A DNA stretch of 56,744 bases, from contig JBBDTH010000018.1 of assembly GCA_040904505.1 (NCBI GenBank), positions 1-56,744 of the forward strand, given 5' to 3'. Made by a program: the position numbers and the translations under genes. The notes under the pieces are model-generated. The model was not told the origin of the DNA. It saw nothing but the letters and a program-made list of their open reading frames with translations, and did not search any database. Within the stretch, counting starts at the first letter, position 1. Each line of letters starts with the position of its first letter. Shown here in pieces: positions 2,554 through 31,877 of the stretch. Source of the stretch: Rhodospirillales bacterium. GTDB taxonomy: Bacteria > Pseudomonadota > Alphaproteobacteria > Rhodospirillales > CALINB01.

Positions 2554-4284
2554 TCAGATCAGGCACACATCGCTGGCGCATCCTAGGTCTTTATCCGCTT
2601 CCACCAAAAGGCTCTGCCAGGATCCGGGCAGGTCGACCTGCCGGCCGATCACGCGGCGCGAGTTGCCCTGAAACCAGAAATTATGCGTCGGATGATCGCC
2701 GCCGGCGACCAAGAGGATTAGGTTTTCCGGCTTTCTGCAGATAGGCCACGGGTCAAGCGAGGCCGTTTTGATCGTATCGGGATGGGTGTCCGCCTCGATC
2801 CATTGCCTTAAGCCCGTCCTGATTACGTCGGCCTGCGGGATGGCGGAATGCTCCCAAAGATGGTTTCTGATCTTTTCCTTGGACCAACCGAGCTTTGCGA
2901 GCTGGTTCGCCGAGATCGGGGATAACAGCAATCCGCCGGGTGTGCCGTGTTCGTAACCCCGTATATAGTGAATGTTGGGAACCTTGAGGTAATCCACGAG
3001 TTTTTCGATGCTTTCGCGGGCTTCCTGCTCGAGGGTCTCCTTGCCGGTACCGCGGCGCATGATATTCGTGGCGCCGGTTGCGACAAAAACGGAAACGGCA
3101 TTGGTGTTCTGCTTGAAACCGTGCCGTTCCGTCGCGAAAGGCAGCCAGCCTTCGGGCAGCCTCTCCTCGTCTTCCGCGAACACGGCGTTGGTATAACGCA
3201 TCTGCCCGAAAACGGCCATCGTGCCGACCCCGGGAAGGGCGCCGCCGACATTTTGCAACAGAAACCGAATGGCCCGGCCGATGCTGGCGCCCGCCGGCCG
3301 TTGCGGATCGGGGCCTAATAAACCGAAACCGGAATTCAGGCGGACTTCTTTCGCGATCGGACCATTAACGACGACAACGGGAAAAGTGCTGCCCGACGTC
3401 GCTTGCCATTGATCGTGAACGAACTCCGGATCGAGGATCGCATCCAATGCGGCCAACAGAACGGGAAAATACTCCGGTCGGCCTCCGGCCATGGCCAAGG
3501 CGACGGCGGCAGTCTCGACCGTTGCGATACCGCCGCGCGGCATGATCTTGCCGAGCGTTTCGTATCGCAGTCTGTCCGAACCCCGGAGAATCCAATCGAC
3601 TCGTGTCATGTCGGGCGGGATGACCGGCAAGCCGTCTCCCCACAGGTTCGTCAGGAACAGGTTGTTGATTTGCCGGGCCGCATCTTCGTAGTCGTCGCTT
3701 GTGACCGTCATCATCGGCGCGTTGCGCATGCCGGTTTTCTTGGCCGCGGGCTGCCATCGCGTCAGGCCGTCGTAAAACTCCTCGATACGATCGGCTACGG
3801 GAGTCAGGTCGCTTTCGACCAAAAATAAATCGATGGGAAACGTGACCATGGCCGCGTCTTGATCGAATCCCAGACCCGAAACGGCATTACGGACGACGCC
3901 GACGAAATCTTCGCGCGTGAGAATGACGGTGGGAATGCCCTCGGCTTCGATTTTCGCGGCAGCACGGCCGCATGCCGTTGCGCAACGGCCTCAGGAGGCG
4001 TTGCCGATAACGATTGCGTCAACCTTCAGGTCTTTTGCGCGTCGAATCGTTTTATCTTTTTCGATTTCCAAATTACCGGTCGGAAATTCGGTGTAGGGAA
4101 CGATCTCGACGTCCTTGAAATTTTTCGCCATGAAATCGGCGATCAGAGGAAGCGTTCGATGCGCTTGCCATTCGTCATTCGAAACGAACCCGATTCTTTT
4201 GCCGTTTAGAGAATCAAGCCGGGGCGCGTGCAGGCAAAGCACTTCGGTCGCGCCGCTGGGGTCGAAAACGTCGATTGTATGCAT
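2554..4284 (-). CDS. candidate selenoprotein: UGSC-like N-terminal redox domain (Sec at TGA 3991-3993) continuous with a ~430-aa uncharacterised domain
   Basis: ORFs 3991..4290 and 2554..3849 are in the same frame (4290-3849=441). The 47 codons between them have no stop. Context is VDAIVIGNAS-U-GRCATAC. GGAG lies 7 nt before ATG 4284, and there is no SD before the internal ATG 3849. Sec machinery is present in the window. Confidence 0.6.
3974..3989 (-). promoter_or_regulatory. candidate SECIS-type stem-loop immediately 3' of the UGA at 3991-3993
   Basis: mRNA GCCGUU-GCGC-AACGGC forms a perfect 6-bp hairpin starting 2 nt after the UGA. An alternative outer pairing is GGCCG (3986-3990) with CGGCC (3966-3970). 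Confidence 0.35.
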
Positions 4285-14040: not shown

Positions 14041-15267
14041 TTACTCGACCCGGTGTTTTTGCGCCGTCGGCACCAACGATTTCTCGCCGAGCACCGTGAT
14101 GGCGGGCGTATCGCTGGCGAGGCAGATTTTTCGCAAGACGAAAATAACCCGGGCGAACGCCGTTTCCCCCCAAAACCAGTTTTCGAGTTGCCGTTGCGAG
14201 ACGGTTCCCGGCTGCGCCATCATGGCTTCCAAATAATAGGCCTTGATGTCTTCATAAGCCGCGCGCAGGAAGGCGTCTGTTTTCAGATCCCCGCGCGGCG
14301 GCGGGGTCGCGGGGTCCTCGATGAAATTCAGGATAAACGCGGCGGCCTCGGCGATGTCGACGCCGCTCACGCCGACCGTGGTGCGCCCGCGCCGTTCGAC
14401 GGACAAGCCGTACCAAGGTTGCAGCCGGTCCATTTCCTCCCGAAACGCTTTCGCCAAACCGTTCTCGTCGGCCTCGCCGGGCAGCGGCGGCAGATCGACC
14501 GGGCAGACCATGCCGGTCATGTCGTCGTCTTCGCTCTCGAGCGTATCGGGCGCGTCTTCCGGAAAATCGGCCAGCAACGGGCCGGTGTGCGCGTCGAGAA
14601 GATCCAACGCAGCCCGGAGAACCTTTTTCTGAAAGGCCGGGTCGTTGGGTGCGCCCAGGGGACGGCCGAGCATGAACGGCACCCACAGCGCCCGCGGCGG
14701 TTTGATCCGCTCGGTGTGGTCGCGAACGAGGCTGATTTGGGTCGTGGCGATGCCGTCGCGTTCAAGGTAATGAGCGAGCGCGCCGACGGCGCGCGTGCAC
14801 ATGGGTCAGACGGGCACCAGCAACACGGTGTCGACGCCGTCCTTCTTCAAAAGGCCGGCCAGGGTGCGCCCGGCGACGTCCAGCTTCTCCGGCGCCGTGC
14901 TGCCGAGCACGGAGTAATGGTAATCGGCAATGGAACCGATGACGCCCTCGCGGGCCAGTTCCTTGAGGCGCTCGAGCGGAAAGCAGATATTCAAATCCTG
15001 CTGATACCCCGTGCGGTCGAAATTCGAGGAATTATGCGCCATGATCAGATCGCCCGCCGGCGTGTCGGCGGGGATGATTCGGTAGTCGGTCGCGCCTCGG
15101 GTCAGAAGCGGATCGCTGTGCCGTTGCAGGGCGGCGGTCGAGATGATGGCGATCCGTCTTTCCTCGAGCGGCGGCCCCGGCGTCCAGGGAGTCGTCTCGA
15201 ATTCGGGACAGGGCGTCTTTAACAGATGGGCACTCATCGCCTCGGAGACGTCGGTGAGCCGAACCAT
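14041..15267 (-). CDS. glycine/sarcosine/betaine reductase component B (GrdB) family selenoprotein candidate, Sec at TGA 14806-14808
   Basis: ORFs 14806..15279 and 14041..14802 are in frame. The junction reads DTVLLVPV-U-PMCTRAVGALAHYLERDGIATTQISL, the U/CxxC core of the GRDB family. ATG 15267, with an alternative TTG at 15279. Confidence 0.8.
14778..14794 (-). promoter_or_regulatory. candidate SECIS stem-loop
   Basis: mRNA GCGCGCC-GUC-GGCGCGC forms a 7-bp GC stem that begins 11 nt after the UGA. The apical loop contains GU. Confidence 0.55.
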
Positions 15268-15431
15268 GAAATTTTCCAATCGAATTAGATATGCCTGACG
15301 GCGAGAGTTGCAGGATAAACAATCAGGTCGCGATTTGGCAAATCAAAGCGCGGCATTGCGGATTGGGCGGTTGCCTCCGGCCCGGCCTTCCTCCATACTT
15401 GCCTGAACGACATGTATCAGGGAGAATCGTC

Positions 15432-16226
15432 ATGACCGCCGAGCGCGTTAAAGTCTTCTGGCAGCCTGGCTGAACGAGCTGTCTTAAAACCAAGGAATTC
15501 TTGGCGGCCCGTGGGGTCGATTTCGAATCCGTTAATGTTCAGGACGATCCGGAAGGATTAGCCGAGTTACGCAGACTCGGGGCGCGGTCCGTGCCGGTCG
15601 TATCCGTGGGCGATAAGTGGACGTTCACGCAGACCTTCGACGATGTCTGCAAAATGTTGGGCATCGAATACGACGATACCCCGCAGCTTTCCCCCGAAGA
15701 CCTTGCCCGCAAAACGGATATGATTCTTGCGGCCGCCGAACGATTCGTCCGGCAGCTGCCGCCCGATCAGTTCGAGCAGAATGTCCGTACCCGCAAGCGG
15801 GCCTACAAGAATCTCTGTTATCATATTTTCCGGCTGACCGAGTCGTTCCTGGATGTCGTGATCGACGGCGGCGGCAAGGAGAAGTTTACCCGGGATCATA
15901 TGAATCCCCTGTGCCCGGCTCATCTGAAGTCGTTCGAGGATATCGCCGATTTCGGCGCGTCCGTGCGCAAACGGTTCAACGATTGGTGGGCGAATAAAGG
16001 GGACGTGTCCTTCGATCGGATCGTGCCGACGTATTACGGGGACAAGAAGATGCACTATGTCTTCGAGCGGTTGACGTGGCACCCGGGCCAGCATGTCCGC
16101 CAGCTTATGATGCTCCTGCGCGAGGACTTCAAAATCGAGCCCAAGCAACCCTTACAGGATTCGGATTTCGCGGGTTTGCCCATTCCCGAAAAGGCCTGGG
16201 ACGATGAGCCCGGGATGACGAAGTAA
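15432..16226 (+). CDS. glutaredoxin-fold / DinB-like fusion, selenoprotein candidate (Sec14, motif U-T-S-C)
   Basis: GGGAGA SD then ATG 15432. MTAERVKVFWQPG-U-TSCLKTKEFLAARGVDFESVNV...SVPVV is a Grx/NrdH-type fold with TGA 15471-15473 at the first redox position. The frame is continuous with ORF 15501..16226. The C-terminal half has a DinB-like His pattern (CYHIF, WHPGQH). Confidence 0.72.
15490..15504 (+). promoter_or_regulatory. weak candidate SECIS stem-loop
   Basis: CCAAG-GAAUU-CUUGG lies 16 nt after the UGA. It can be extended by GCUG (15478-15481) pairing with CGGC (15505-15508) across an 8-nt bulge. Confidence 0.25.
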
Positions 16227-16260: not shown

Positions 16261-16355
16261 TGGCGGAAGAGAGTGGGAGTCGAACCCACCAGGAACGCCT
16301 AACGCCCCTGAACGGATTTGAAGTCCGCCCGAGCCACCGGACCCGATTCCCTTCC
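16261..16355 (-). tRNA. selC: tRNA-Sec (anticodon UCA)
   Basis: 95-nt reverse complement GGAAGGGAATCGGGTCCGGTGGCTCGGGCGGACTTCAAATCCGTTCAGGGGCGTTAGGCGTTCCTGGTGGGTTCGACTCCCACTCTCTTCCGCCA. It has the GGAAG start, a long acceptor stem, a long variable arm and a CTTCAAA anticodon loop, as in E. coli selC. Confidence 0.93.
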
Positions 16356-16462: not shown

Positions 16463-18286
16463 TTACGCGGCCCGCGACGCGCGTTTGCGTTCGTGTTCCT
16501 TGAGGAACTTCTTGCGGATGCGGATCGATTTCGGCGTGACCTCGACCAGCTCGTCGCCGTCGATGAATTCAAGCGCATATTCGAGGGTCGCGCGGATCGG
16601 CGGCGTCAACAGGATGTTTTCGTCGCTGCCGGCGGCGCGAATATTCGTCAGTTGTTTTGTCTTGAGCGGATTCACGACCAGATCGTTGTCGCGCGAATGG
16701 ATCCCGATCACCATGCCTTCGTACACATCAAGGCCCGGATTGATGAACAGATCGCCCCGCTCCTGAAGATTGAAGAGGGCGTAGGCAATCGATTTTCCGG
16801 TCGCCATCGAAACGAGGACGCCGTTGCGGCGCTCGTTGATGCTGCCGGTCACCCGGGGGCCGTAGTGATCGAAGGTATGGTACATCAAGCCGGTCCCGGA
16901 CGTGGTCGTGAGGAAATCCGAGCGAAAACCGATCAAGCTGCGGCTCGGGATAAGATAATCGAGCCGGACCCGTCCCTTGCCGTCCGGCGTCATGTCACGC
17001 AGTTCGCCGCGCCGCTCGCCGAGCTTTTCCATGACGGCGCCCTGATGCTGTTCCTCGACGTCGATCGTCAACGTTTCCCACGGTTCGCAGATTTCCCCGT
17101 CGATCGTCTTCAAAATCACTTCGGGGCGCGAAATGGCCAACTCGTAGCCTTCCCGCCGCATGTTTTCGATCAGGATCGACAGGTGCAGCTCGCCGCGTCC
17201 GGAAACCTTGAATTTATCCTGGCTGTCCGTCGGTTCGACCCGCAGGGCGACGTTGTGCAGTAATTCCCGATCGAGGCGGTCGCGAAGATTGCGGCTGGTG
17301 ACGAATTTTCCTTCGCGTCCGGCGAACGGCGAGTCGTTAACCTGAAACGTCATGGAAATCGTCGGTTCGTCGACGACCAGGGGCGGCAGCGCCTCGACGG
17401 CATCCGGGTGGCACAGCGTATCGGAGATGTGCAGTTCCTCGAGGCCGGTGAACGCGATGATCTGACCGGCATGGGCTTCTTTTTGTTCGATCTTCTCGAG
17501 CCCGTGGAATCCGAGAATTTGCAACATGCGGCCCTGCCGGGTGTTGCCGTCGGCGCCGATTACGGTGATGGAGCTGTTGGCCTTGATCCTGCCCCGGCGA
17601 ACGCGGCCGATGCCGATGACGCCGACATAGCTGGAATAGTCCAGCGCGCTGACCTGCAATTGAAACGGGCCGTTTAAATCCACGTCCGGCGGCGGCACGT
17701 GATCGATAACGGTTTGGAACAGTTCGGTCATGTCTTCGCGCGGCGAATCAAGGCTTCGCGAGGCCCACCCTTGGGTCGCGGATGCGTAAATTACCGGGAA
17801 ATCGAGTTGTTCGTCGGTCGCGCCCAAGCGCACGAACAGATCGAATGTCTGGTCGACGGCCCAATCGGGCCGCGCGCCCTGCCGGTCGACTTTGTTGATG
17901 ACCAGAATAGGGCGCAGGCCTTGAGCAAGCGCCTTGCTCGTCACGAACCGGGTTTGCGGCATCGGGCCTTCGACGGCGTCCACAAGCAGCAGGACCGAGT
18001 CCACCATGGACAAAACCCGCTCGACCTCGCCGCCGAAGTCGGCGTGGCCCGGCGTGTCGACGATATTGATGCGCCAGTCCTTCCAGTGAATCGACGTATT
18101 TTTCGATAAAATCGTGATTCCGCGCTCGCGCTCGAGATCGTTCGAATCCATCACCCGTTCCGACGCGTCGCCGAACTTCGTGAGCGTGCCGGATTGGCGG
18201 AGCAACTGATCGACGAGCGTGGTTTTGCCATGATCCACGTGGGCGATAATGGCAATGTTGCGAAGGCCGCTTATTTTATCGTTCAT
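16463..18286 (-). CDS. typA: translational GTPase TypA/BipA
   Basis: 607 aa. [22 protein letters not shown] plus full-length BipA-like sequence. Confidence 0.96.
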
Positions 18287-18390: not shown

Positions 18391-20325
18391 TTAATCATCC
18401 GTTAGGGGGCGGAAAACCTCGTCCGCGGGGCGGAGGATGCCGCGCAGGTCGCCTTGGCGTTTGGTCAGCTTGACCGTATCGAAGTATTCCAGGAGTTCGA
18501 TGGTCAGGTTGCGCCCGATCCCGGAACGGTCGCGGAACGCGGCGGCGTTGAACAGGCCATCCGGGCTGTCCGTGGCCAGTTGCTCGGCGATGGCGCCAAG
18601 CCGGTGCAAGGCGTCGGGCGTGAAATACCGGTTCTTGGCAACGGGTTGCACGACGCCCCGCCGAACGCTCCGGTCCAGAAACCGCTGAAGTTGATCCGGT
18701 CTCATGCCGAGGTCTGCGGCGAGTTCGCGCACGGTCGGCGGGCGCAGCCCCGCTTTGTCCAGCAGCGGCTTGACCCGCTTCCAAAGCGCGGCTTCCTGGG
18801 GCGGTATGGACGGTCGGTGTCCGGCAAGGCCGATAAGCTCGCTCCGGCGCGTTAGGCTCTTATCGTCGATAAGGCGTTCCACGGCGGCGCCGAGCAAGCC
18901 GTCGATTAACCGCAGGGACAGGCGTTGTGTTACTTGGACTACTGTCAGGCCCGGGCTTTCCGGCCGTTCGCCATGCCATTTCTTCAAGGTATCGAGAAGT
19001 TCCGTTTGCAGCCGGTCCCATAAACGGGGAGCAAGGGCGAACCGCTGCGTTCCGGCCGTTAGAACCGTTATCGAGCCGCTGTCGCGAAGCGCGGTATATT
19101 CCGATTCCGTTAAATTCCGGGCCCGGGCGAATTGAGTAAGGTCGATGCCGTTCGGCGATGATTCCGCCAGTTCCGATAAGGCAAGCGTGGGGTTGTCTTG
19201 GTCCAGGGCAACAAGCTGGAGGAGGCGTTCCGGCTTCGCGCGTCCCCGTTTCGGCGCGAAGGGATCGAGCACCCAGCCGCCGCCGATCGTCCGCCGGGCC
19301 GATTGGTCGCGCAGGATGAAGCGGTCGCCGTAAAAAACGTTCGTTTTATCGTCCAGGACGAGTTGCGCAATGCCGGTATCGCCGGGTTCGATCGCGCGCG
19401 ATTCCAAGATGGCAAGGCGTCCCGGCAGGTCGGCGGCGCCGACGTGCACGTGTACAGGCATCCAATGCCTGAGGGGGCGCGGCTCTCGGATGAGGGCGCG
19501 GACCTTGACGTCGATCCGGTCCGTCGGCACGAAGGCAGGCTCCGCAACGATCCAGCTTCCCCGTTGAACGGCCGATTTCTTGAGATCGCGGCCGGTCAGG
19601 TTCAGGGCGCATCGTTGCCCCGCCGATCCGCGCTCGGATTCCCGGTTTTGGGCGTGCAGACTCCGCACGCGGGCGGGGATGCCCGCCGGCGCGACGATGA
19701 TCTGATCGCCCGTTTGCACCGTTCCGGAGAATACGGACCCGGTGACCACGAGTCCGGAGCCCGAAAGCGTAAAGCACCGATCGACGGCCAGCCGAAAGTT
19801 GCCGTGCGTTCGGCGCCGTTCCAGGTGATGGGCGACATCGTGAAGATGCCGGTAGAGGACGTCGATGCCGTCGCCCGTCAGTGCGGAAACGCGGAAGCTC
19901 GGCGCATTTTCAAGCGCCGTTCCACTCAGAAGCCCGGAGATTTGCACGTCGACCTCATCGAGGCGGGCTTGATCGACCCGGTCGCTTTTCGTAATCGCGA
20001 TCGCGCCGTTTCGCACATTGAGCAGATTAAGGATGTCCAGGTGTTCCACCGTTTGCGGCATGATGCCGTCATCGGCGGCGACGACGAAAAGGACGAAATC
20101 GATGTTGGTAACGCCGGCCAGCATATTGCGAACGAACCGTTCGTGACCCGGTACATCGACAAATCCGAGAGTCTCGTCGTCCCCGAAAGCCTTATAAGCG
20201 AAACCGATGTCGATTGTCAGGCCTCGGCGTTTCTCGTCGGGCAGGCGGTCGGTGTCGATTCCTGTTAACGCCTTAACCAGAAGTGTCTTGCCGTGATCGA
20301 TGTGGCCGGCTGTCGCGATAATCAA
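18391..20325 (-). CDS. selB: selenocysteine-specific translation elongation factor
   Basis: 644 aa. [41 protein letters not shown] plus a long winged-helix C-terminal extension. The TTG start overlaps the selA stop (TTGA). Confidence 0.93.
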
Positions 20326-21761
20326 GATGCTGCCTCGTCCGCCAATACGAGCTTTTCGAGTTGGGTGCTAAATCCTTGTTCGTCTTCCAAGCACCGAAGA
20401 TCGAGCCAAAAGGCGTTGTCCTGAAGCCGCCCGATGACGGGTCGTGGCAGGCTTCGAAAGGCGTCCGCAATGCGCCGTGCCGCCGTACCGGCTTTGCGCT
20501 TGCCGGCTTTCGGTCGGATGACGAGCGCCGCGCTGGGGATGCGGGTCAGGGGTAAGGAGCCGCTACCGGTTTGGCTGTCGCAGGGCTCGACCGTCACCTC
20601 GGCCACAGGGGCCAAGCATTTTTGCAAGTTCGGCAAGAGGCGTTGCGCCGATTGCTCGACCGAGTCGCGGGAGCGGGCCAGCAGACGTAATGTCGGCACG
20701 CGTTCGAGCAGTTTTTCCGGATTGGCATAGAGTTGCAGAACGGCGGCGAGGGCGGCGATCGTCACCTTGTCGAGCCGCATGGCCCGTTTCATGGGATTGC
20801 GTTTGATTTTGCCGATCAGATCGGCGCGCCCGACGATGATGCCGGCCTGCGGACCGCCCAAAAGTTTATCCCCGCTGAACGTTACCAAATCGGCGCCTTG
20901 GGCAAGGGTTTCCTGGGCGGTCGGTTCGTGGGGCAGGCCGTAGGGGGCCAAATCGACGAGGGTGCCGCTGCCGAGATCCACCATAAACGGCAAGCCGTGC
21001 CGATGGGCGAGATCGGCCAGCTCTTTTTCCGGAACCGTCTTGGTGAATCCTTGCACGGTGTAGTTGCTGGTGTGCACTTTCATCAAAAGCGCGGTGCGCT
21101 TGCCGATGGCGCTTTCGAAGTCTTTCAGGTGCGTGCGATTGGTCGTACCGACCTCGACGAGTTTGCAGCCGGCCCGGCTCATGATGTCGGGCATGCGGAA
21201 CGATCCGCCGATTTCGATGAGCTCTCCCCGGGAAACGGGAATCTCCTTTTTGAGCCCGAAGGTGTTCAAACACAGCAGGACGGCGGCGGCATTATTGTTC
21301 ACGACGGTCGCCGCTTCGGCTCCCGTAAGACGGCAGAGCAGCGTATCGAGATGGCTATCCCTATCGCCGCGCTTGCCTGTCGCCAAGTCGTATTCGAGAT
21401 TACCGGCCTCCCGGGCGGCATCCGTCATGGCGGTAATGGCTTCCTCGGGCAACAAGGCCCGGCCCAAATTCGTATGCAGGACCGTTCCGGTGAGATTGTA
21501 GACGGCCCGCAGCGGCGGTTGCACCCACGAGTCAAGAAGACCGGCGACCAGCGGGACGACGGTTTCATCGTCGATGGGTTTGGCAATTCTCGGCCGCTCG
21601 GCCGCGAAAGAATCGCGAAGCTTTGCTAACACGGTTCGCACGGCGTCCGCCGTCATCGGGCGCCCGTATCTCTCCGTCATGGCAACGATGGGCGGGAGGT
21701 TCAGGACGTGATCGACGGAGGGAATAGAGGCTAGAACGGTATCAGAAGAAGGCATCGGCAC
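20322..21761 (-). CDS. selA: L-seryl-tRNA(Sec) selenium transferase
   Basis: 479 aa. NLTGTVLHTNLGRALL and the PLP-lysine context FSGDKLLGGPQAGIIVGR. Confidence 0.95.
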   Translation of the reverse strand: MPMPSSDTVLASIPSVDHVLNLPPIVAMTERYGRPMTADAVRTVLAKLRDSFAAERPRIAKPIDDETVVPLVAGLLDSWVQPPLRAVYNLTGTVLHTNLGRALLPEEAITAMTDAAREAGNLEYDLATGKRGDRDSHLDTLLCRLTGAEAATVVNNNAAAVLLCLNTFGLKKEIPVSRGELIEIGGSFRMPDIMSRAGCKLVEVGTTNRTHLKDFESAIGKRTALLMKVHTSNYTVQGFTKTVPEKELADLAHRHGLPFMVDLGSGTLVDLAPYGLPHEPTAQETLAQGADLVTFSGDKLLGGPQAGIIVGRADLIGKIKRNPMKRAMRLDKVTIAALAAVLQLYANPEKLLERVPTLRLLARSRDSVEQSAQRLLPNLQKCLAPVAEVTVEPCDSQTGSGSLPLTRIPSAALVIRPKAGKRKAGTAARRIADAFRSLPRPVIGRLQDNAFWLDLRCLEDEQGFSTQLEKLVLADEAAS

Positions 21762-22151: not shown

Positions 22152-22946
22152 ATGGTGAAGAAGTCGGGGGTCTCTAAGGCGGTTTTCACGGATTTTGAAA
22201 ATTCTCCTGCCGAGCCCTTTATTCCCCAAACGGATTACGGCGCCGCGGCAGGGAAGCCCGCGCCCGCCGCCTCGGCGGCGAAGAAAACCGTCTCATCGGG
22301 CAAACCCGGGCGCAAGACCGAGCACACCCAGATGGATATCGAGGACTATCTGCGGGTATTGAAAACCCTCGGGGTGCAAGACGAGAAGCGCGAGAATTTT
22401 TTCGGCCGGCTGTTGGTGCGGACTTTCGAGCATAAGCTGACAGAGGCCAACGAGGCGCCGGATGCAGAGGGACAGGTATCGCGTTCCATGTTGCCGGGAT
22501 TCTTTACCGTGCTGCATATCCTGCTCGGCAGGAGTTTGATCGAGCGATACCAATCGATGACGAAAGAAATCGTTCAACGTACGAACGGCAGCCTCGAGAA
22601 CATCGATTGGAACAAGGTTTACGGCAATCAGGACGCCAAGCTCATCACGCAGGATGCTTTGGTTGCCTTGGCATTGCATCTGGAAAGCATAGAAGAGAGC
22701 GCCGGCTGGTTCGTCGATCTCGTGAACGATAATTCGTCAGCGCCGCACGTGAAGATTACGGTGGACGAGTTCAATTGGCGATTGACTCAAAATACTTTCA
22801 AAGGCTTGTTAGGTGATCTCTTCGGAGAATTGCGCGAGACGTTGGCCACGGAGACCGGGCGATTGCAGATGACACGGCGCCATGGTGCGGAAACCTGCAT
22901 CAAGCTTGTCGAGTTCATGGGCCATCTGGATGTCTTGAAAAATTAA
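22152..22946 (+). CDS. hypothetical protein (264 aa), no family recognised
   Basis: Long ORF with balanced composition, followed by a canonical terminator. Ala/Lys/Pro-rich N-terminal ~60 aa, then a helical-looking body. Confidence 0.6.
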   Translation: MVKKSGVSKAVFTDFENSPAEPFIPQTDYGAAAGKPAPAASAAKKTVSSGKPGRKTEHTQMDIEDYLRVLKTLGVQDEKRENFFGRLLVRTFEHKLTEANEAPDAEGQVSRSMLPGFFTVLHILLGRSLIERYQSMTKEIVQRTNGSLENIDWNKVYGNQDAKLITQDALVALALHLESIEESAGWFVDLVNDNSSAPHVKITVDEFNWRLTQNTFKGLLGDLFGELRETLATETGRLQMTRRHGAETCIKLVEFMGHLDVLKN

Positions 22947-23025: not shown

Positions 23026-24381
23026 CTATACTTGTAGTAACGGCCGCAATTCGGTGACGTCCGCGATGCTTTCGAGGTCTAATATCCGATCGACCAGCCG
23101 GGCAGTTTTCTCGGAGCCGATGACGGGGCCCATCAGGCCGACGGCCTTGGCGGCGACCTCGGCGCGGTCCATGGGATTGGCGGCGCTGCCTCGGACGGCT
23201 TTGGTGTGATGGCTTAACACGCGCCCGTCGAGCGTCGTGATGTCGACGATGGCCTGGCGCGGCGGGTGAGCCGTTCTCAAGTCTTTGTCGGGAATCAGTT
23301 CGACCTTGCGGCGCAAAGCGAGGATATCGGAATCCTCCATGCGGGCATCATTGTGAGTGTTTTCGAAAGTCAAGTGGCGGTCGATCAGAAACAACGCGGT
23401 CAAGTGCTGCAGGCACATGTTCGGCATCAGGCTGTTGTCCGAGATTGCATAACGGCCCTCGGGCAGCGTGATGACGATCTTTTCCACCTGATCCGGTCGG
23501 ATGTCGTGTTCTCTTATCAGGATTTCGATCGCATCCAAGGGCGATTGCGCCGGCATGCCGACACACCACTTCTTGAGATTCGCATCCAGAATATCGAAGC
23601 GTTTTCCCAGCTCTTTCGTGATTTCCTCCGGGCGGGGATCGTTCGTGAAGACATCCAAATAGCCGTGGGGGCCGGACAGAACGTCATCGACGCCGCTGAG
23701 GCCGGCGGCGGCGAACAGCGCGGCCTGTACGGCGTTCCGCGCCGGCATGCCGCCGAACACGAATGCCTTTTCCACGTGTTCGTTATCCCGGTGCCAACAC
23801 GGGACCCCCGATGCCTGCTGCATCGCGTATGAAATCAGGTAACGGGCCTGCCGGTCATCGATTTTTAAGAGCGAGCCGCAGGCCGCCGCGGCGCCGAATT
23901 GCGCCCCCGTACATGTGGCGTGGCGGGCATCGTTGAAGAGCACGTCCGGACCGAGGGCGAGATTGAAGCGCGCGCCGATGTCATAGCCTAAGGCAACGGC
24001 CTCAATCAGCGCCCGGCCCGTGCATTGTCCGCGTTCGGCGACGGCCAACGCCGCCGGAACGATCACGCATCCCGGATGGAAACGCGCACGTTGGTGGGTA
24101 TCGTCGGTTTCGTCGGCATGGGCGAGGGTACCGTTGACTTGGGCCGCGTTGATCGCCGTGGTGACATACCGGGCGGCGGCAACCGTGGCTTCGGCGGAAC
24201 CGCCTTGAGTGCTCATGAACTCGATCGCCAAACGGCCGGGTTTCAGAGCGGCGCCCGAGATCATGGCGGCTACCGTGTCGAGAATATGAAGTTTCGCTTT
24301 ATCGATAACGTCGCGCGGCAGGTCCCGTGCGTGCGTCAAGGCCATGTAGGCGCTGAGCTCGGCCATTAAAGGCGATATCAT
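23026..24381 (-). CDS. MmgE/PrpD family protein (2-methylcitrate dehydratase-like)
   Basis: 451 aa. Family-typical N-terminus (LPRDVIDKAKLHILDTVAAMISGA) and HADETDD / FHPG motifs. Confidence 0.9.
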   Translation of the reverse strand: MISPLMAELSAYMALTHARDLPRDVIDKAKLHILDTVAAMISGAALKPGRLAIEFMSTQGGSAEATVAAARYVTTAINAAQVNGTLAHADETDDTHQRARFHPGCVIVPAALAVAERGQCTGRALIEAVALGYDIGARFNLALGPDVLFNDARHATCTGAQFGAAAACGSLLKIDDRQARYLISYAMQQASGVPCWHRDNEHVEKAFVFGGMPARNAVQAALFAAAGLSGVDDVLSGPHGYLDVFTNDPRPEEITKELGKRFDILDANLKKWCVGMPAQSPLDAIEILIREHDIRPDQVEKIVITLPEGRYAISDNSLMPNMCLQHLTALFLIDRHLTFENTHNDARMEDSDILALRRKVELIPDKDLRTAHPPRQAIVDITTLDGRVLSHHTKAVRGSAANPMDRAEVAAKAVGLMGPVIGSEKTARLVDRILDLESIADVTELRPLLQV

Positions 24382-24491
24382 TCCCGGTTTTCCCCTGATC
24401 CAAGGCCATTATTTCGGCATAGTTGTCTGCCTGCGAAGAATACACAATAATATGCTCCGTTACATTCGTCCCGGAATAGGTAGCTCAACCC

Positions 24492-25295
24492 ATGACATTT
24501 CATCGTTTTGAAGACTATAAGGCACGCGCTCATGCCATTCACTTGACCACGGCGCAAAATCGTAAAATCGAAGGCGACTACATGTTCTTCTGCCACGTTA
24601 CCAAGGCGGCAGGCACCGGCTCCGAGCTTCATTATCATCCGAACGAACTTTTGACTTTTATCTTGAACGGCAAGGCGAATGTTCTTGTCGGCAAGGAGCG
24701 CCGTATCGTTCCGGCCGGAACGTTCGTTCATATTCCGCCCTGTGCCCGCCATTCGATTAAGGCATCGGAAGACGGCGATATGCAATATCTCTATATCAAG
24801 GATCAGACATGGTCGATGGTCGGCGTTGCCGCCGATGAAGCCTTGCCCGACGAGGCGCCGGACGTTGAAGAGGTTGCGGAGAAATTTTCCAAGGGCGAAT
24901 GGCCGGGGCAGAAAAAAAGCCCGGAGGAATCGGGGGCCATCATCGAAGGATTGGCGAATTGTTTTTATCCCGTCATCGAGTCCTTCGATGCGCCGACTAT
25001 TTCCTGCGAACGGACCTGCCGCATCGCCGGCGAACGCCTGGCATTCAATTTTGCCGATCTGCCTGAAGGCTATCATCATCGATTCGATGCGACGCCGCAC
25101 GAGGAATTCATCTACCTATTGAAGGGCGAGCTGACCGCGACGGTCGGCGGCGAGAAGAAAAACTGCGTTTCGGGTGATGTTATCCAAATCCCGAAGGGCT
25201 CGAAGCTGTCGCTCGAAGTGACGGTGGGGCCGGTGCGTTATGTGTCCGTCGAATCCACGACGTTTTTGGAAGGGAAAATCGACCGGAAAATGTAA
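24492..25295 (+). CDS. bicupin protein, paralog A
   Basis: N-terminal cupin motif GTGSELHYHPNELLTFILNG ... GTFVHIPPCARHS plus a second cupin-like C-terminal half. Confidence 0.8.
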   Translation: MTFHRFEDYKARAHAIHLTTAQNRKIEGDYMFFCHVTKAAGTGSELHYHPNELLTFILNGKANVLVGKERRIVPAGTFVHIPPCARHSIKASEDGDMQYLYIKDQTWSMVGVAADEALPDEAPDVEEVAEKFSKGEWPGQKKSPEESGAIIEGLANCFYPVIESFDAPTISCERTCRIAGERLAFNFADLPEGYHHRFDATPHEEFIYLLKGELTATVGGEKKNCVSGDVIQIPKGSKLSLEVTVGPVRYVSVESTTFLEGKIDRKM

Positions 25296-28706: not shown

Positions 28707-30389
28707 ATGGCCGCCGATCAGCCTCGTTTCACGGGTCAACAAGAAGACACCGCGCAAATACTCGACACGGTCGACGAGCTTCTGCGTTCAGGCCGTTTCG
28801 AGGAAGCCGACGCGTTATGCCAACGCCTCGTCGAGGCGGACCCAGGTAATGCCGAAGCGCACTATTTTCTGGGATTGATTGCATTCGAAGGCAATGCACT
28901 CGAGCATTCCGAAAATCATTTGGCGCGGGCGGTATCGCTGATGCCCGACGATCCGGTTTTTTTGTGCAATCTCGGTAACGTTCAGCATGCCCGGGGCGAT
29001 TTGGCCGCATCCGAAAAAAGTTTCAGGGCGGCCATTCGTTATGATGACTCTTTGTCGCAGGCCCACGCCAACCTCGGGCTCGTTCTGACGCAACTCGGCC
29101 GGCTTGAAGAGGGCATTCGGGCCTTGAACAAAGCGCTTTCTCTCAATCCGGAAGATGTCGAGGCGCATCTGAATTTAGGCAATGCGTTTCGGGAACAAAA
29201 TGAATTCAAGGATGCGATCGGCCATTACCGCCGTGCCATCGCTCTCTCGCCCGATTATGCCCAAGCCCATCGCAATCTGGGCGGCACCTTAACTCAGATC
29301 GGCGCATTCGATGAAGCCGAGGCATCGCTGCGGCGCAGCCTTCAACTGCAGCCCCAATCCACGGAAACCTATACCGAACTCGGTTTGATTCTCATCGAGG
29401 CCGGAAAGCTGGAAGAGGCCGCCGAGCATTTCATCGGTCCGGTTCGCGCCTTCCGTTCCGTTCAGGAACGGCCGCTCGACGAGTTTCCCGAGTTCGACAA
29501 GATCAATAAAACTAAATTGTCCCACGATATCGACCAACTCGAATACCTTCTCGCCCGGCACCAGATTTCGGAGGATCATCGGGCCTTGGTCGCGGACTAC
29601 AAAGCGGCCCTGACCCGATTGGGCGAGCATTACGAAGGAACGCTGAGTGCGTTCGATCCGCCGGCGCCGGCACGGCTGCTGTCATCGTATAACCGTATCA
29701 TTCATCATGCCCCGGCGGCGCAAGTTGCCGGCGGGGCCTTGTCGCCGGATCTCGACCTTGCGAAGATCGAAAACGATTTCCTGGCATCACAACATGGTTT
29801 CACATTCTTCGACGGCTTGTTGAAAGATGAAGCGTTGGCCGCCTTGCGGGCGTTTTGCCTCGACTCGACGATTTGGTGCCTTTTGGATTATCCGGATGAA
29901 TTGGAGTCGAATCTGCTGACGGGATTTTCCTGCCCGCTTATTTTCCAAATCGCCGCCGATATCAAAGCGGCCTTCCCCAAGATTTTCGGTCCGCATGCCT
30001 TCACGTCCTGTTGGGCGTATAAATATTTTCAACGCAAATCCGGTCTCGGCGTTCATTGCGACGACGGCGCCGTCAGCATCAATTTCTGGATTACGCCGAA
30101 TGAGGCGAACAACAATCCCGATGCGGGCGGATTGGTGCTGTGGAACAAAAAAGTACCGCGGGATTTTCTGGGGGAAATGACGGAAGAGCGCCAGGAACGG
30201 TTCCGGCGTGTCTTGGACGAGCCAGATGCCCGATCGTTCACGGTACCCTATGGGTGCAACCGCGCGGTACTGTTTCATTCGAACGTGCTACACGGTACGG
30301 ACGCGATCGACTTTAAGCCCGGTTATGAGAACAACCGGATCAACATGACGTTCCTGTACGGCAAGGCGCCGAAAGGCGTGGGTGGCTGA
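28707..30389 (+). CDS. TPR-repeat protein with C-terminal 2OG-Fe(II) oxygenase-like domain
   Basis: About six TPR units (AEAHYFLGL, AHANLGLV, AHLNLGNAF, AHRNLGG). The C-terminus has HCD ... LFHSNVLHGTD ... RINMTF (HxD..H..R). Confidence 0.8.
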   Translation: MAADQPRFTGQQEDTAQILDTVDELLRSGRFEEADALCQRLVEADPGNAEAHYFLGLIAFEGNALEHSENHLARAVSLMPDDPVFLCNLGNVQHARGDLAASEKSFRAAIRYDDSLSQAHANLGLVLTQLGRLEEGIRALNKALSLNPEDVEAHLNLGNAFREQNEFKDAIGHYRRAIALSPDYAQAHRNLGGTLTQIGAFDEAEASLRRSLQLQPQSTETYTELGLILIEAGKLEEAAEHFIGPVRAFRSVQERPLDEFPEFDKINKTKLSHDIDQLEYLLARHQISEDHRALVADYKAALTRLGEHYEGTLSAFDPPAPARLLSSYNRIIHHAPAAQVAGGALSPDLDLAKIENDFLASQHGFTFFDGLLKDEALAALRAFCLDSTIWCLLDYPDELESNLLTGFSCPLIFQIAADIKAAFPKIFGPHAFTSCWAYKYFQRKSGLGVHCDDGAVSINFWITPNEANNNPDAGGLVLWNKKVPRDFLGEMTEERQERFRRVLDEPDARSFTVPYGCNRAVLFHSNVLHGTDAIDFKPGYENNRINMTFLYGKAPKGVGG

Positions 30390-30393
30390 CCTA

Positions 30394-31518
30394 TTATTCC
30401 GCCGCGGCCTTCCGGGAGGGTACGTCTTGTCGGTGCCCCGGCCATACCGCGTTCGGGATCATGACGTATCCCTCGAACAGGCGCCGGCAGGTCCGGATGA
30501 TGCCGACCCGTTTGACGTCGGGGAATGCGCCGGAGACTTCGAACTCGATGTTCACGTCGATCTTGCCGCTCGGGTGCTCGATGGTGATGATCTGTTTATC
30601 GGCGTTGCCGATTTTAGCGACGTCGTTCGCGACGGTGCCCGGCGTTACGGCCGCCGAGGCGACGCAGCAACTGCCGGTGACGGCAAAGGCGGCATGGCAG
30701 GTATAGGGCACGAAATACCGTGCCGTGATGCTGCCGCCGTTTTTCGGCGCGGTGACGATCCCGAATTTCGGAATGACTTTTCCGGTCGCGTCGCCGAGGC
30801 CCATCATGGGAGACGCTTTCTGACGGATGCTTTCGAGTTTCTCGTAGAAAGCCTTGTCGGCATCCAGTTCCGCTTTGCTTTCATACCCGGTCTTGCCCAT
30901 GGCCTCGGCCTTCACCAGCACCATCGGCATGGCCACGTCCACGCAGGATACTTCGATTCCGTCGATCATGTCCTTCGCGTTTCCCGTGGGAAGCATCGAG
31001 GAGCATTTCGAACCGGCGGCGTTCAGGAAATTCAAGGTTATCGGGGCGGCCGTGCCGGGAACGCCGTCGATGGACGCATCGCCGTCGTAAACGACTTCGC
31101 CGCCCGGGGTTTGAATGACGGCTTCGATCAGGGTTTGGGTGTTGACGTTGTATATCCGGATCGTGGTCTCGGGATCCCGTGCCTTGACGAGTCCGGCTTC
31201 GATGCCGAACGGCCCGACGCCCGAAAGCATGTTGCCGCAATTGGGGCTAGTATCGACGATAGGCTTATCGAAGGCGACTTGGGCGAACAGATAATCCACA
31301 TCCGCGTCCTCGCGGTCGGACAGGCTGACCATGGCGACCTTGCTGGTCAGCGGCGTCGCGCCGCCGATGCCGTCGGTCTGGAGGATGTCGGGCGAGCCCA
31401 TGGCGGCCAGCAACACGGTATCCCGGGTCGCCTCGTCGACCGGGAGATCGGAGCGCAGGAAAAAGGGCCCTTTCGACGTGCCGCCCCGCATCAGGACGCA
31501 GGGAATCCGGGTCTGCAT
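30394..31518 (-). CDS. PrpF family isomerase (4-oxalomesaconate tautomerase / 2-methylaconitate isomerase-like)
   Basis: MQTRIPCVLMRGGTSKGPFF ... DTSPNCGNMLSGVGPF ... AFAVTGS. Confidence 0.9.
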   Translation of the reverse strand: MQTRIPCVLMRGGTSKGPFFLRSDLPVDEATRDTVLLAAMGSPDILQTDGIGGATPLTSKVAMVSLSDREDADVDYLFAQVAFDKPIVDTSPNCGNMLSGVGPFGIEAGLVKARDPETTIRIYNVNTQTLIEAVIQTPGGEVVYDGDASIDGVPGTAAPITLNFLNAAGSKCSSMLPTGNAKDMIDGIEVSCVDVAMPMVLVKAEAMGKTGYESKAELDADKAFYEKLESIRQKASPMMGLGDATGKVIPKFGIVTAPKNGGSITARYFVPYTCHAAFAVTGSCCVASAAVTPGTVANDVAKIGNADKQIITIEHPSGKIDVNIEFEVSGAFPDVKRVGIIRTCRRLFEGYVMIPNAVWPGHRQDVPSRKAAAE

Positions 31519-31877
31519 GATTGTGTCCTTTCCTCAATGACGGTATTTGATGGTTGCTCACGTGCGGGTGACTATAAATCCCGGAATCGCCCGGGGCAAT
31601 TGTCCTTAACGCATTGTTTAAATTGAAGAACCGGGTCTTCCGCTTTCCGGAGAGCCCAAAGCGGGAAGGCCCATCGGTTTATTCCATGAACCGATGGGTG
31701 CGTTTCGAGATTGACGATTGTTTTCCCCGCGTTATAAAACCGCTGAAAACAAATTCCCCCGAACGAAATAAAAAAGCATTCGTTCACCGCGGCTGAAAAA
31801 ATAGGGTCGGTGCCTGGCCTTAGGGCGGGCGGCAGGGAGTTTGTCGCGATTTTTTAAACTCTGGAGGACTCTCTCTT

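Follow-up and report, generated by a model that had tools for sequence, protein, structure and literature searches.

Positions 15432 to 16226 (+) of a 56,744-nucleotide stretch of DNA from a Rhodospirillales bacterium (assembly GCA_040904505.1, contig JBBDTH010000018.1; the whole stretch is called the window below) were analysed as a candidate selenoprotein gene. The region is best read as one gene for a selenoprotein with a glutaredoxin-like (Grx-like) and a DinB domain, in which an in-frame UGA would be decoded as selenocysteine (Sec) at the first active-site residue. A probability of roughly 0.88 was assigned to this reading. It is supported by sequence analysis: the frame is continuous, a Sec/Cys pair is found at the nucleophilic position of a CxxC motif, genes for Sec machinery lie close by, and the mRNA has a structure specific to the Sec forms of the gene.

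The reading frame was read again directly from the sequence. A Shine-Dalgarno-like GGGAGA (15420-15425, +) stands 6 nt 5' of ATG 15432, from which the frame runs through MTAERVKVFWQPG (counted as 13 sense codons after the ATG) to TGA 15471-15473 (+) and continues with TSCLKTKEFLAARGVDFESVNVQDD, open up to TAA 16224-16226. The putative full coding sequence (15432-16226, +) thus specifies 264 residues including Sec14, the first residue of the motif U-T-S-C. The second, presumably resolving Cys of this UxxC motif, Cys17, is encoded by TGT (15480-15482, +) and was invariant in 37 of 37 distinct Sec-form sequences, in which it was specified by TGC 21 times and by TGT 16 times. TGA is the ordinary stop codon of 10 of the 22 confident genes in the window, so the genetic code is not reassigned. 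An earlier note on this DNA, made from the sequence alone, had described a Shine-Dalgarno sequence and an ATG opening a frame across the UGA into a 241-residue open reading frame (ORF), with a glutaredoxin/NrdH-type start, U-T-S-C where CxxC is expected, and a His-containing C-terminal half that resembles DinB. The frame was borne out by the second reading, the glutaredoxin/NrdH-type start by a Pfam match spanning the TGA together with PDB and fold matches, the U-T-S-C site by Cys homologues reading C-T-S-C, and the C-terminal half by a DinB_2 match, invariant His residues and a fold model, all of which are described below.

Homologues were searched among 5.8 billion proteins with the 264-residue product as query, and 1,134 relatives were found at E<=1e-5. 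Full-length homologues had 255-260 residues and were about 47-51% identical to the query, covering 98% of it. They read ERV[KR]VFWQPG-C-TSCLRTKEFL where the product of the window reads ERVKVFWQPG-U-TSCLKTKEFL; because they carry C at this site, the TGA is aligned with the first Cys of C-T-S-C, as it is in the alignment with 115 or more Cys forms. Homologues that begin at the equivalent of position 15501 and have no Grx-like N-terminus, which according to the earlier note would speak against the proposal, were looked for with a negative outcome: the Cys homologues extend through the Grx N-terminus with C-T-S-C.

The codon at this site was then read in other genomes. In a scan of species-representative genomes 360 relatives were obtained, of which the best 80 were examined for the codon, 6 of them having no match to the search motif. 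Among these best 80, TGA forms were present in 14 assemblies, labelled Rhodospirillales, Rhodospirillaceae, Alphaproteobacteria or Pseudomonadota, one of them 95% identical to the window. The remainder had TGC or TGT and were mostly labelled Burkholderiales or other Beta-/Gammaproteobacteria, with one labelled Sphingomonadaceae. A scan of metagenomes gave 21 TGA forms among the 80 loci kept. In total, 39 distinct DNA versions had TGA at this codon, with frames intact on both sides and protein identities as low as about 46%. The assemblies with Sec forms were of soil, freshwater and marine origin and bore the labels Alphaproteobacteria or Rhodospirillales.

In the 37 distinct Sec-form sequences, W-x-P-G was invariant 5' of the TGA, and Val, Phe, Pro and Gly were each encoded by two to four synonymous codons. 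A conserved peptide with synonymous codon changes is the signature of a translated sequence. On the 3' side, [TS]-S-C was likewise conserved with synonymous variation. In a neighbour-joining tree, a single split set the 39 Sec forms plus one Cys form (locus L169) apart from the other 115 Cys forms. That the TGA arose from TGC in a Cys-type gene as a pseudogene mutation or an assembly error is suggested by the single base between the two codons and by the metagenome-type assembly from which the window comes. This explanation is exceedingly improbable in view of the 39 distinct versions with intact frames from independent assemblies and of the tree, in which one split parts the whole set of Sec forms from all but one of the 116 Cys forms. 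The exceptional Cys form (L169 / L170, TARA ocean contigs, codon at 1525) has TGC, is nested in the Sec clade as sister to the subclade of the window and contains neither of the hairpins described below. It may represent a reversion from Sec to Cys.

Current annotations follow the TGA as a stop. In the mechanical ORF list and in other sources the gene starts at TTG 15501 and has 241 residues. The NCBI-sourced database protein, recorded on a contig that equals the window in length (56,744 bp), has 190 residues (15654-16226, +), starts at ATG 15654 and begins with MLGIEYDD, so the entire redoxin (glutaredoxin) domain is missing from it. The prediction that an annotator would start the gene at TTG 15501 therefore holds for ORF callers, and the NCBI entry is worse than predicted. 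All Sec-form database entries examined were shortened (111-241 residues) and, where named, were called 'hypothetical protein'. The closest relatives (71-74% identical, plus one of 48%) are database proteins of 235-236 residues cut at the same place, and their DNA contains the in-frame TGA at the same codon with the same conserved peptide 5' of it.

If these annotations were right, the TGA would be a true stop, the gene would start at TTG 15501 or ATG 15654, and the 13 upstream codons would form a non-coding leader or a short leader peptide. Both the gene callers and the NCBI-sourced entry treat the codon in this way (241 and 190 residues), and other genes in the window end normally with TGA. 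The peptide upstream of the TGA, however, is conserved with synonymous variation in 37 distinct sequences, the Cys homologues carry the identical peptide at their N-terminus, and a product starting at 15501 would be without strand beta-1 and the active site of the Grx fold that Pfam matches across the TGA. Furthermore, TTG 15501 falls within a conserved hairpin, the RNA structure is specific to Sec forms, and selC, selB and selA are adjacent. Termination at this codon was judged very improbable on these grounds.

Two abutting hairpins are predicted immediately 3' of the UGA. Hairpin 1 (15490-15504, +; CCAAG-GAAUU-CUUGG) has 5 bp and -4.2 kcal/mol, contains TTG 15501, and its loop starts 21 nt past the UGA. 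Hairpin 2 (15505-15519, +; CGGCCC-GUG-GGGUCG) has 6 bp, a GUG triloop and -7.6 kcal/mol and lies 37 nt past the UGA. According to the published consensus for the bacterial selenocysteine insertion sequence (bSECIS), the loop has 3-9 nt and the stem 4-16 bp, with a G among the first two loop nucleotides, most often with G or U after it, 16-37 nt between UGA and loop, and a minimum free energy of <= -7.5 kcal/mol (PMC13188914). Hairpin 2 falls within these bounds, although at their limits, with a 3-nt loop starting with GU, 6 bp, 37 nt and -7.6 kcal/mol. The loop of hairpin 1 contains no GU or GG.

Each of the 39 distinct Sec forms had exactly one of two hairpins with a G-U loop and never both. 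Hairpin 2 (+32..+46) was found in 16 of them, including the window and, for example, loci L022 and L051. The other 23 had CGAAAGA-GUU-UCUUUCG at +17..+33 without hairpin 2 (e.g., L004 2629-2649, L013, L099). The GUU and GUG types were interleaved on the neighbour-joining tree. A single hairpin register shared by all Sec forms was tried and ruled out, as hairpin 1 of the window type (i+j=48), the hairpin of the other clade (i+j=50) and hairpin 2 are different helices. The sequence of hairpin 1 is frozen in the clade of the window, but the wider set of Sec forms with hairpin 2 does not conserve it. Among the 16 sequences that have hairpin 2, pair 38-46 was U-A in 9 and C-G in 7 and was never unpaired; five of the six core pairs were formed in every sequence, and the six core pairs were paired at 96%. 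When the partner was shifted by one to three columns, pairing in the hairpin-2 sequences dropped from 87% to 25-55%.

RNA structure was also assessed by recoding, in which the fold energy of the native segment +10..+51 was ranked as a percentile among 200 synonymous recodings. The median percentile was 0.115 for Sec forms versus 0.548 for Cys forms (Mann-Whitney p=1.7e-13), and percentiles of <=0.05 were obtained for 15 of 40 Sec forms versus 3 of 112 Cys forms. The percentile of the window itself was 0.005. Sec forms folded more stably despite the higher G+C of the Cys genes, and two control segments elsewhere in the gene gave no difference between Sec and Cys forms in this test. Synonymous sites were compared within the clade of the window (8 sequences, 73-95% identical) at codons for the same amino acid in the first 130 codons. 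Codons 6-16 after the UGA, a stretch that spans both hairpins, showed 97.6% synonymous identity versus 52.5% over the rest, and ranked 1-2 of 129 sliding windows.

From these comparisons it is concluded that a Sec-form-specific RNA element is predicted at 15490-15519. The 5-bp hairpin on which the earlier note had commented is present in the sequence at 15490-15504; the note's judgement that support for a SECIS is weak did not stand in view of the sequence comparisons and of the 6-bp, GUG-looped hairpin 2 (15505-15519). The same note had named a lack of stable structure 3' of the UGA in related genomes as contrary evidence; the recoding test revealed structure specific to Sec forms. By sequence comparison, hairpin 2 is the more likely candidate for the SelB-binding core of the SECIS, with hairpin 1 probably acting as an accessory or stacking helix. 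Alternatively, hairpin 1 (15490-15504) alone could be the functional element and hairpin 2 incidental: the spacing of hairpin 1 is typical (21 nt), its loop starts with G, its synonymous sites are frozen in the clade of the window, and the sole hairpin of the 23 other Sec forms (CGAAAGA-GUU-UCUUUCG, +17..+33) sits near its position. This assignment appears rather unlikely, given the low stability of hairpin 1 (-4.2 kcal/mol), its loop without GU or GG, and the loci L012, L022, L051 and L109, in which hairpin 1 is weak or has another register and loop and hairpin 2 is kept with a compensatory change.

Genes for Sec decoding adjoin the Grx-DinB gene. The gene selC for tRNA-Sec with anticodon UCA (16261-16355, -) was identified by ARAGORN and by Rfam RF01852 (77 bits) and lies 35 nt 3' of the stop codon. 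It is followed by typA/bipA (16463-18286, -), by selB for the Sec-specific elongation factor (18391-20325, -; Pfam GTP_EFTU, Beta-barrel_SelB and SelB winged-helix domains), and by selA for selenocysteine synthase (20322-21761, -; Pfam SelA, E=4e-163), so that typA/bipA stands between selC and selB. All three sel genes are within 6 kb of the Grx-DinB gene. In other loci selC also adjoins the Grx-DinB gene, and three different arrangements were observed. Six loci (L001, L002, L006, L007, L011, L094) have selC downstream in convergent orientation; it is upstream on the same strand in L109 (478-572) and L130 (1319-1411). Such repeated adjacency may mean that the linkage is under selection or that the gene is transferred together with the Sec trait.

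Read-through of the UGA without Sec, for example by near-cognate Trp or Cys insertion with the hairpins merely slowing the ribosome, was weighed against this background. Hairpins after leaky stop codons can promote read-through, and the SECIS is small here and borderline by the consensus model. Such a process is nonetheless highly unlikely at a site that corresponds to the nucleophilic Cys of a CxxC redox motif, a classic position of Sec/Cys exchange, next to selC-selB-selA, with the adjacency to selC repeated in other loci and with hairpin loops that begin with GU like SelB-binding elements.

The predicted protein has two domains. A glutaredoxin/NrdH-like domain of the thioredoxin fold comprises about residues 5-76 (15444-15659, +), with S-V-P55 as cis-Pro motif; its assignment is based on PF00462, NCBIfam matches of the YruB/NrdH type, Grx/NrdH matches in the PDB, a structural model and Foldseek. 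With U replaced by C, Pfam Glutaredoxin PF00462 matched a segment that spans the TGA (residues 6-62; 50.4 bits, cut-off 22.9; E=2.6e-13). NCBIfam gave only sub-threshold matches to glutaredoxin-like models of the YruB type (49.9, cut-off 88.6), the NrdH type (43.2, cut-off 85.8) and the 'UXX-star' type, and none covered the two-domain protein. S-V-P55 was invariant, and U/C-T-S-C precedes helix 16-27 of the model.

A four-helix-bundle domain of the DinB/YfiT type is predicted for about residues 86-232 (15687-16127, +) from DinB_2, invariant columns, the helices of the model and Foldseek. The Pfam match to DinB_2 (residues 130-225, E=1e-4) reached 23.2 bits, just under its cut-off of 24.8, and a precomputed PF12867 match is present in many homologues. 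H131 (15822-15824, +), H217 (16080-16082, +) and H221 (16092-16094, +), located in the second and fourth bundle helices, were invariant in 116 sequences, as were several Arg residues. DinB/STL proteins, which have a His3 site, are thiol S-transferases that depend on a metal (PMC10950700). The metal triad of these DinB-type enzymes combines a His of the second bundle helix with an HxxxH motif of the fourth, the pattern shown by H131, H217 and H221, which form a putative metal site. The tail G-L-P-x-P-x-K-x-W-D at the C-terminus (residues 248-257; 16173-16202, +) showed little or no variation in any column when 20 or 116 sequences were aligned.

An AlphaFold model was obtained for a 51%-identical Cys homologue with the 116-sequence alignment (predicted local distance difference test, pLDDT, 93.6; predicted template modelling score, pTM, 0.90). 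Residues 7-77 of the model formed a beta-alpha-beta-alpha-beta-beta-alpha thioredoxin fold with CxxC just before helix 1, and the C-terminal part consisted of four long helices (89-109, 126-146, 165-185, 204-228). Foldseek comparison with the PDB matched the N-terminal domain to the thioredoxin-like protein BC3987 (3zit, template modelling score (TM) 0.88), and the C-terminal domain to DR0053 (6iz2, TM 0.84, target-normalised), 2p1a and YfiT (1rxq). A sequence search of the PDB returned Grx/NrdH chains only and no DinB chains.

Several points weigh against the proposal as a whole. The evidence for Sec insertion at the UGA, for this gene and for all homologues, comes from sequence analysis. Hairpin 2 has the longest spacing that the consensus admits (37 nt) and barely reaches the energy threshold, and hairpin 1 by itself is weak (-4.2 kcal/mol), short of the bSECIS energy threshold. 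The covarying pair of hairpin 2 also alters amino acids (A/V/I), so coupling at the protein level may be involved, and the Sec-form sequences are mutually related, which inflates the p-values and covariation counts. RNAfold of 15465-15540 (76 nt) was no better than dinucleotide shuffles (z=0.27). Around the UGA no Rfam family matched at gathering or E<=10 thresholds, which does not weaken the finding, as bacterial SECIS elements are too short and varied for such a search. A motif scan confined to the window found no selD. On the protein side, the DinB_2 score is below its cut-off and the structural model is that of a homologue, not of the window protein itself. The biochemical role is inferred from domain families, and gene neighbourhoods are too little conserved for a pathway to be named.

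The following course of events is proposed. Translation would start at ATG 15432, and UGA 15471 would be decoded as Sec by Sec-tRNA(Sec), made and delivered by the products of selC, selA and selB. SelB with Sec-tRNA(Sec) would be recruited by the pair of adjoining hairpins (15490-15519) that follows closely on the UGA. The decoding mechanism of the Grx-DinB gene is the conventional bacterial one. In the protein, Sec14 would attack a disulfide or an electrophile, and Cys17 would resolve the selenenyl-sulfide. As in DinB-type transferases of low-molecular-weight thiols, the DinB domain could bind a metal together with a substrate that is electrophilic or oxidised, or with a thiol partner. The nucleophile or the reducing equivalents could come from the redoxin tethered to it, which would replace or join a free thiol such as glutathione. 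This division of labour, with the DinB metal site holding the substrate or thiol partner and the redoxin serving as nucleophile or electron source, is drawn by analogy and is tentative. In Burkholderiales-type relatives the same task would be carried out by Cys.

Glutaredoxins that contain Sec and 'Grx-like' selenoproteins of the UxxC type form recognised families (PMC13188914, PMC2398784). The bacterial members (PF00462; e.g., the Clostridium oremlandii Grx and the 'Grx-like' family of the GOS and Sargasso surveys) share with the window protein the thioredoxin fold, Sec as first residue of UxxC, pairing with Cys homologues and a hairpin just 3' of the UGA (PMC13188914, PMC2398784). They are single-domain proteins of about 80-100 residues, whereas the window protein has an additional 180-residue DinB domain and a conserved C-terminal tail. 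It also differs from them in its motif U-T-S-C, in having no obvious glutathione-binding motif, and in that no NCBIfam selenoprotein model scored above cut-off. With the DinB/YfiT superfamily (the bacillithiol transferases BstA/YfiT, mycothiol S-transferase, DR0053) it shares the four-helix bundle, a His on helix 2 and an HxxxH motif on helix 4, at marginal sequence similarity (DinB_2, 23.2 bits). Known members of this superfamily, however, are stand-alone proteins that use a free low-molecular-weight thiol, and none has been described as a redoxin fusion or as a selenoprotein.

Canonical glutathione S-transferases and Grx2-type proteins have the same layout of an N-terminal thioredoxin fold followed by an all-helical domain, which is analogy and not homology; the helical domain of the window protein is a DinB bundle with a predicted metal site, unlike the C-domain of glutathione S-transferases. 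Foldseek listed many of the latter, but homology to them was considered and ruled out, as the superpositions were poor (root-mean-square deviation 11-16 A, TM about 0.3). The fusion selenoproteins of NCBIfam (e.g., HUGP/GUXX-star, arsenite methyltransferase/AhpD) likewise combine a Grx-like Sec module with a second domain and are routinely cut at the UGA in databases. The window protein differs from them by its partner domain and by the N-terminal position of Sec, and reached only 28.6 bits with the HUGP/GUXX-star model (cut-off 325). 'DinB' is absent from the 2026 review of the prokaryotic selenoproteome, and a literature search for selenoprotein plus DinB returned nothing relevant. A thioredoxin-fold UxxC selenoprotein with a DinB fusion partner is therefore new with respect to the selenoprotein catalogues searched.

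A further putative selenoprotein gene of the PrdB/GrdB-like UxxC type is located directly upstream of the Grx-DinB gene (14041-15279, -). Its in-frame TGA (14806-14808) gives the reading ...LLVPV-U-PMCTRAV..., and ORF calling broke the gene into 14806-15279 and 14041-14802. Matches to Pfam GRDB and NCBIfam PrdB were below the equivalog cut-offs, so the product is a distant homologue. Clustering of 83 Grx-DinB loci revealed no conserved operon. In 17 of the 83 loci, of Sec and Cys forms alike, a gene of the MmgE/PrpD family stood next to the Grx-DinB gene or in its vicinity; in the window it lies at 23026-24381 (-), and other examples are L001 4429-5850, L004 3546-4901, L006, L009 and L090 10006-11334. 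It was often accompanied by genes for acyl-CoA dehydrogenase, CoA-transferase, HMGL-like or TauD proteins, and genes for glutathione S-transferase, acyl-CoA dehydrogenase, CoA-transferase and TauD occurred sporadically in Grx-DinB neighbourhoods. The co-occurrence with MmgE/PrpD may reflect a functional link to organic-acid or CoA-ester metabolism.

Elsewhere in the window, a 292-residue ORF (1703-2581, -) has an FGE-sulfatase domain and weakly resembles SenA (selenoneine synthase), in the C-terminal part of the latter, and EgtB. It overlaps by 28 nt a 431-residue ORF (2554-3849, -) without any Pfam or NCBIfam match. Three other sizeable ORFs, 22152-22946 (+), 24378-25100 (-) and 30382-31626 (+), with 264, 240 and 414 residues, also had no match in Pfam or NCBIfam.

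Taken together, the protein may be the first selenoenzyme of the DinB/S-transferase-like superfamily, with a metal-dependent DinB domain using the tethered selenol of U-T-S-C as nucleophile or reductant instead of a free low-molecular-weight thiol. The repeated placement beside selC, in three arrangements, could point to a role connected with the Sec trait itself, in the handling of selenium or of thiols, and the SECIS would have moved between two sites 14 nt apart within one family. This combined picture is speculative in its joint form. The gene family adds a widespread, uncatalogued member to the bacterial selenoproteome, and a family model with a Sec exception rule would mend the annotation of the Sec forms. 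The occurrence of two alternative SECIS positions in one family offers a compact natural test case for the evolution of SECIS elements inside coding sequence. Finally, the presence of Sec at the first position of CxxC identifies the redoxin domain as essential for catalysis, and the Sec site thereby provides a handle on the function of a Grx-DinB family with more than 1,000 members.

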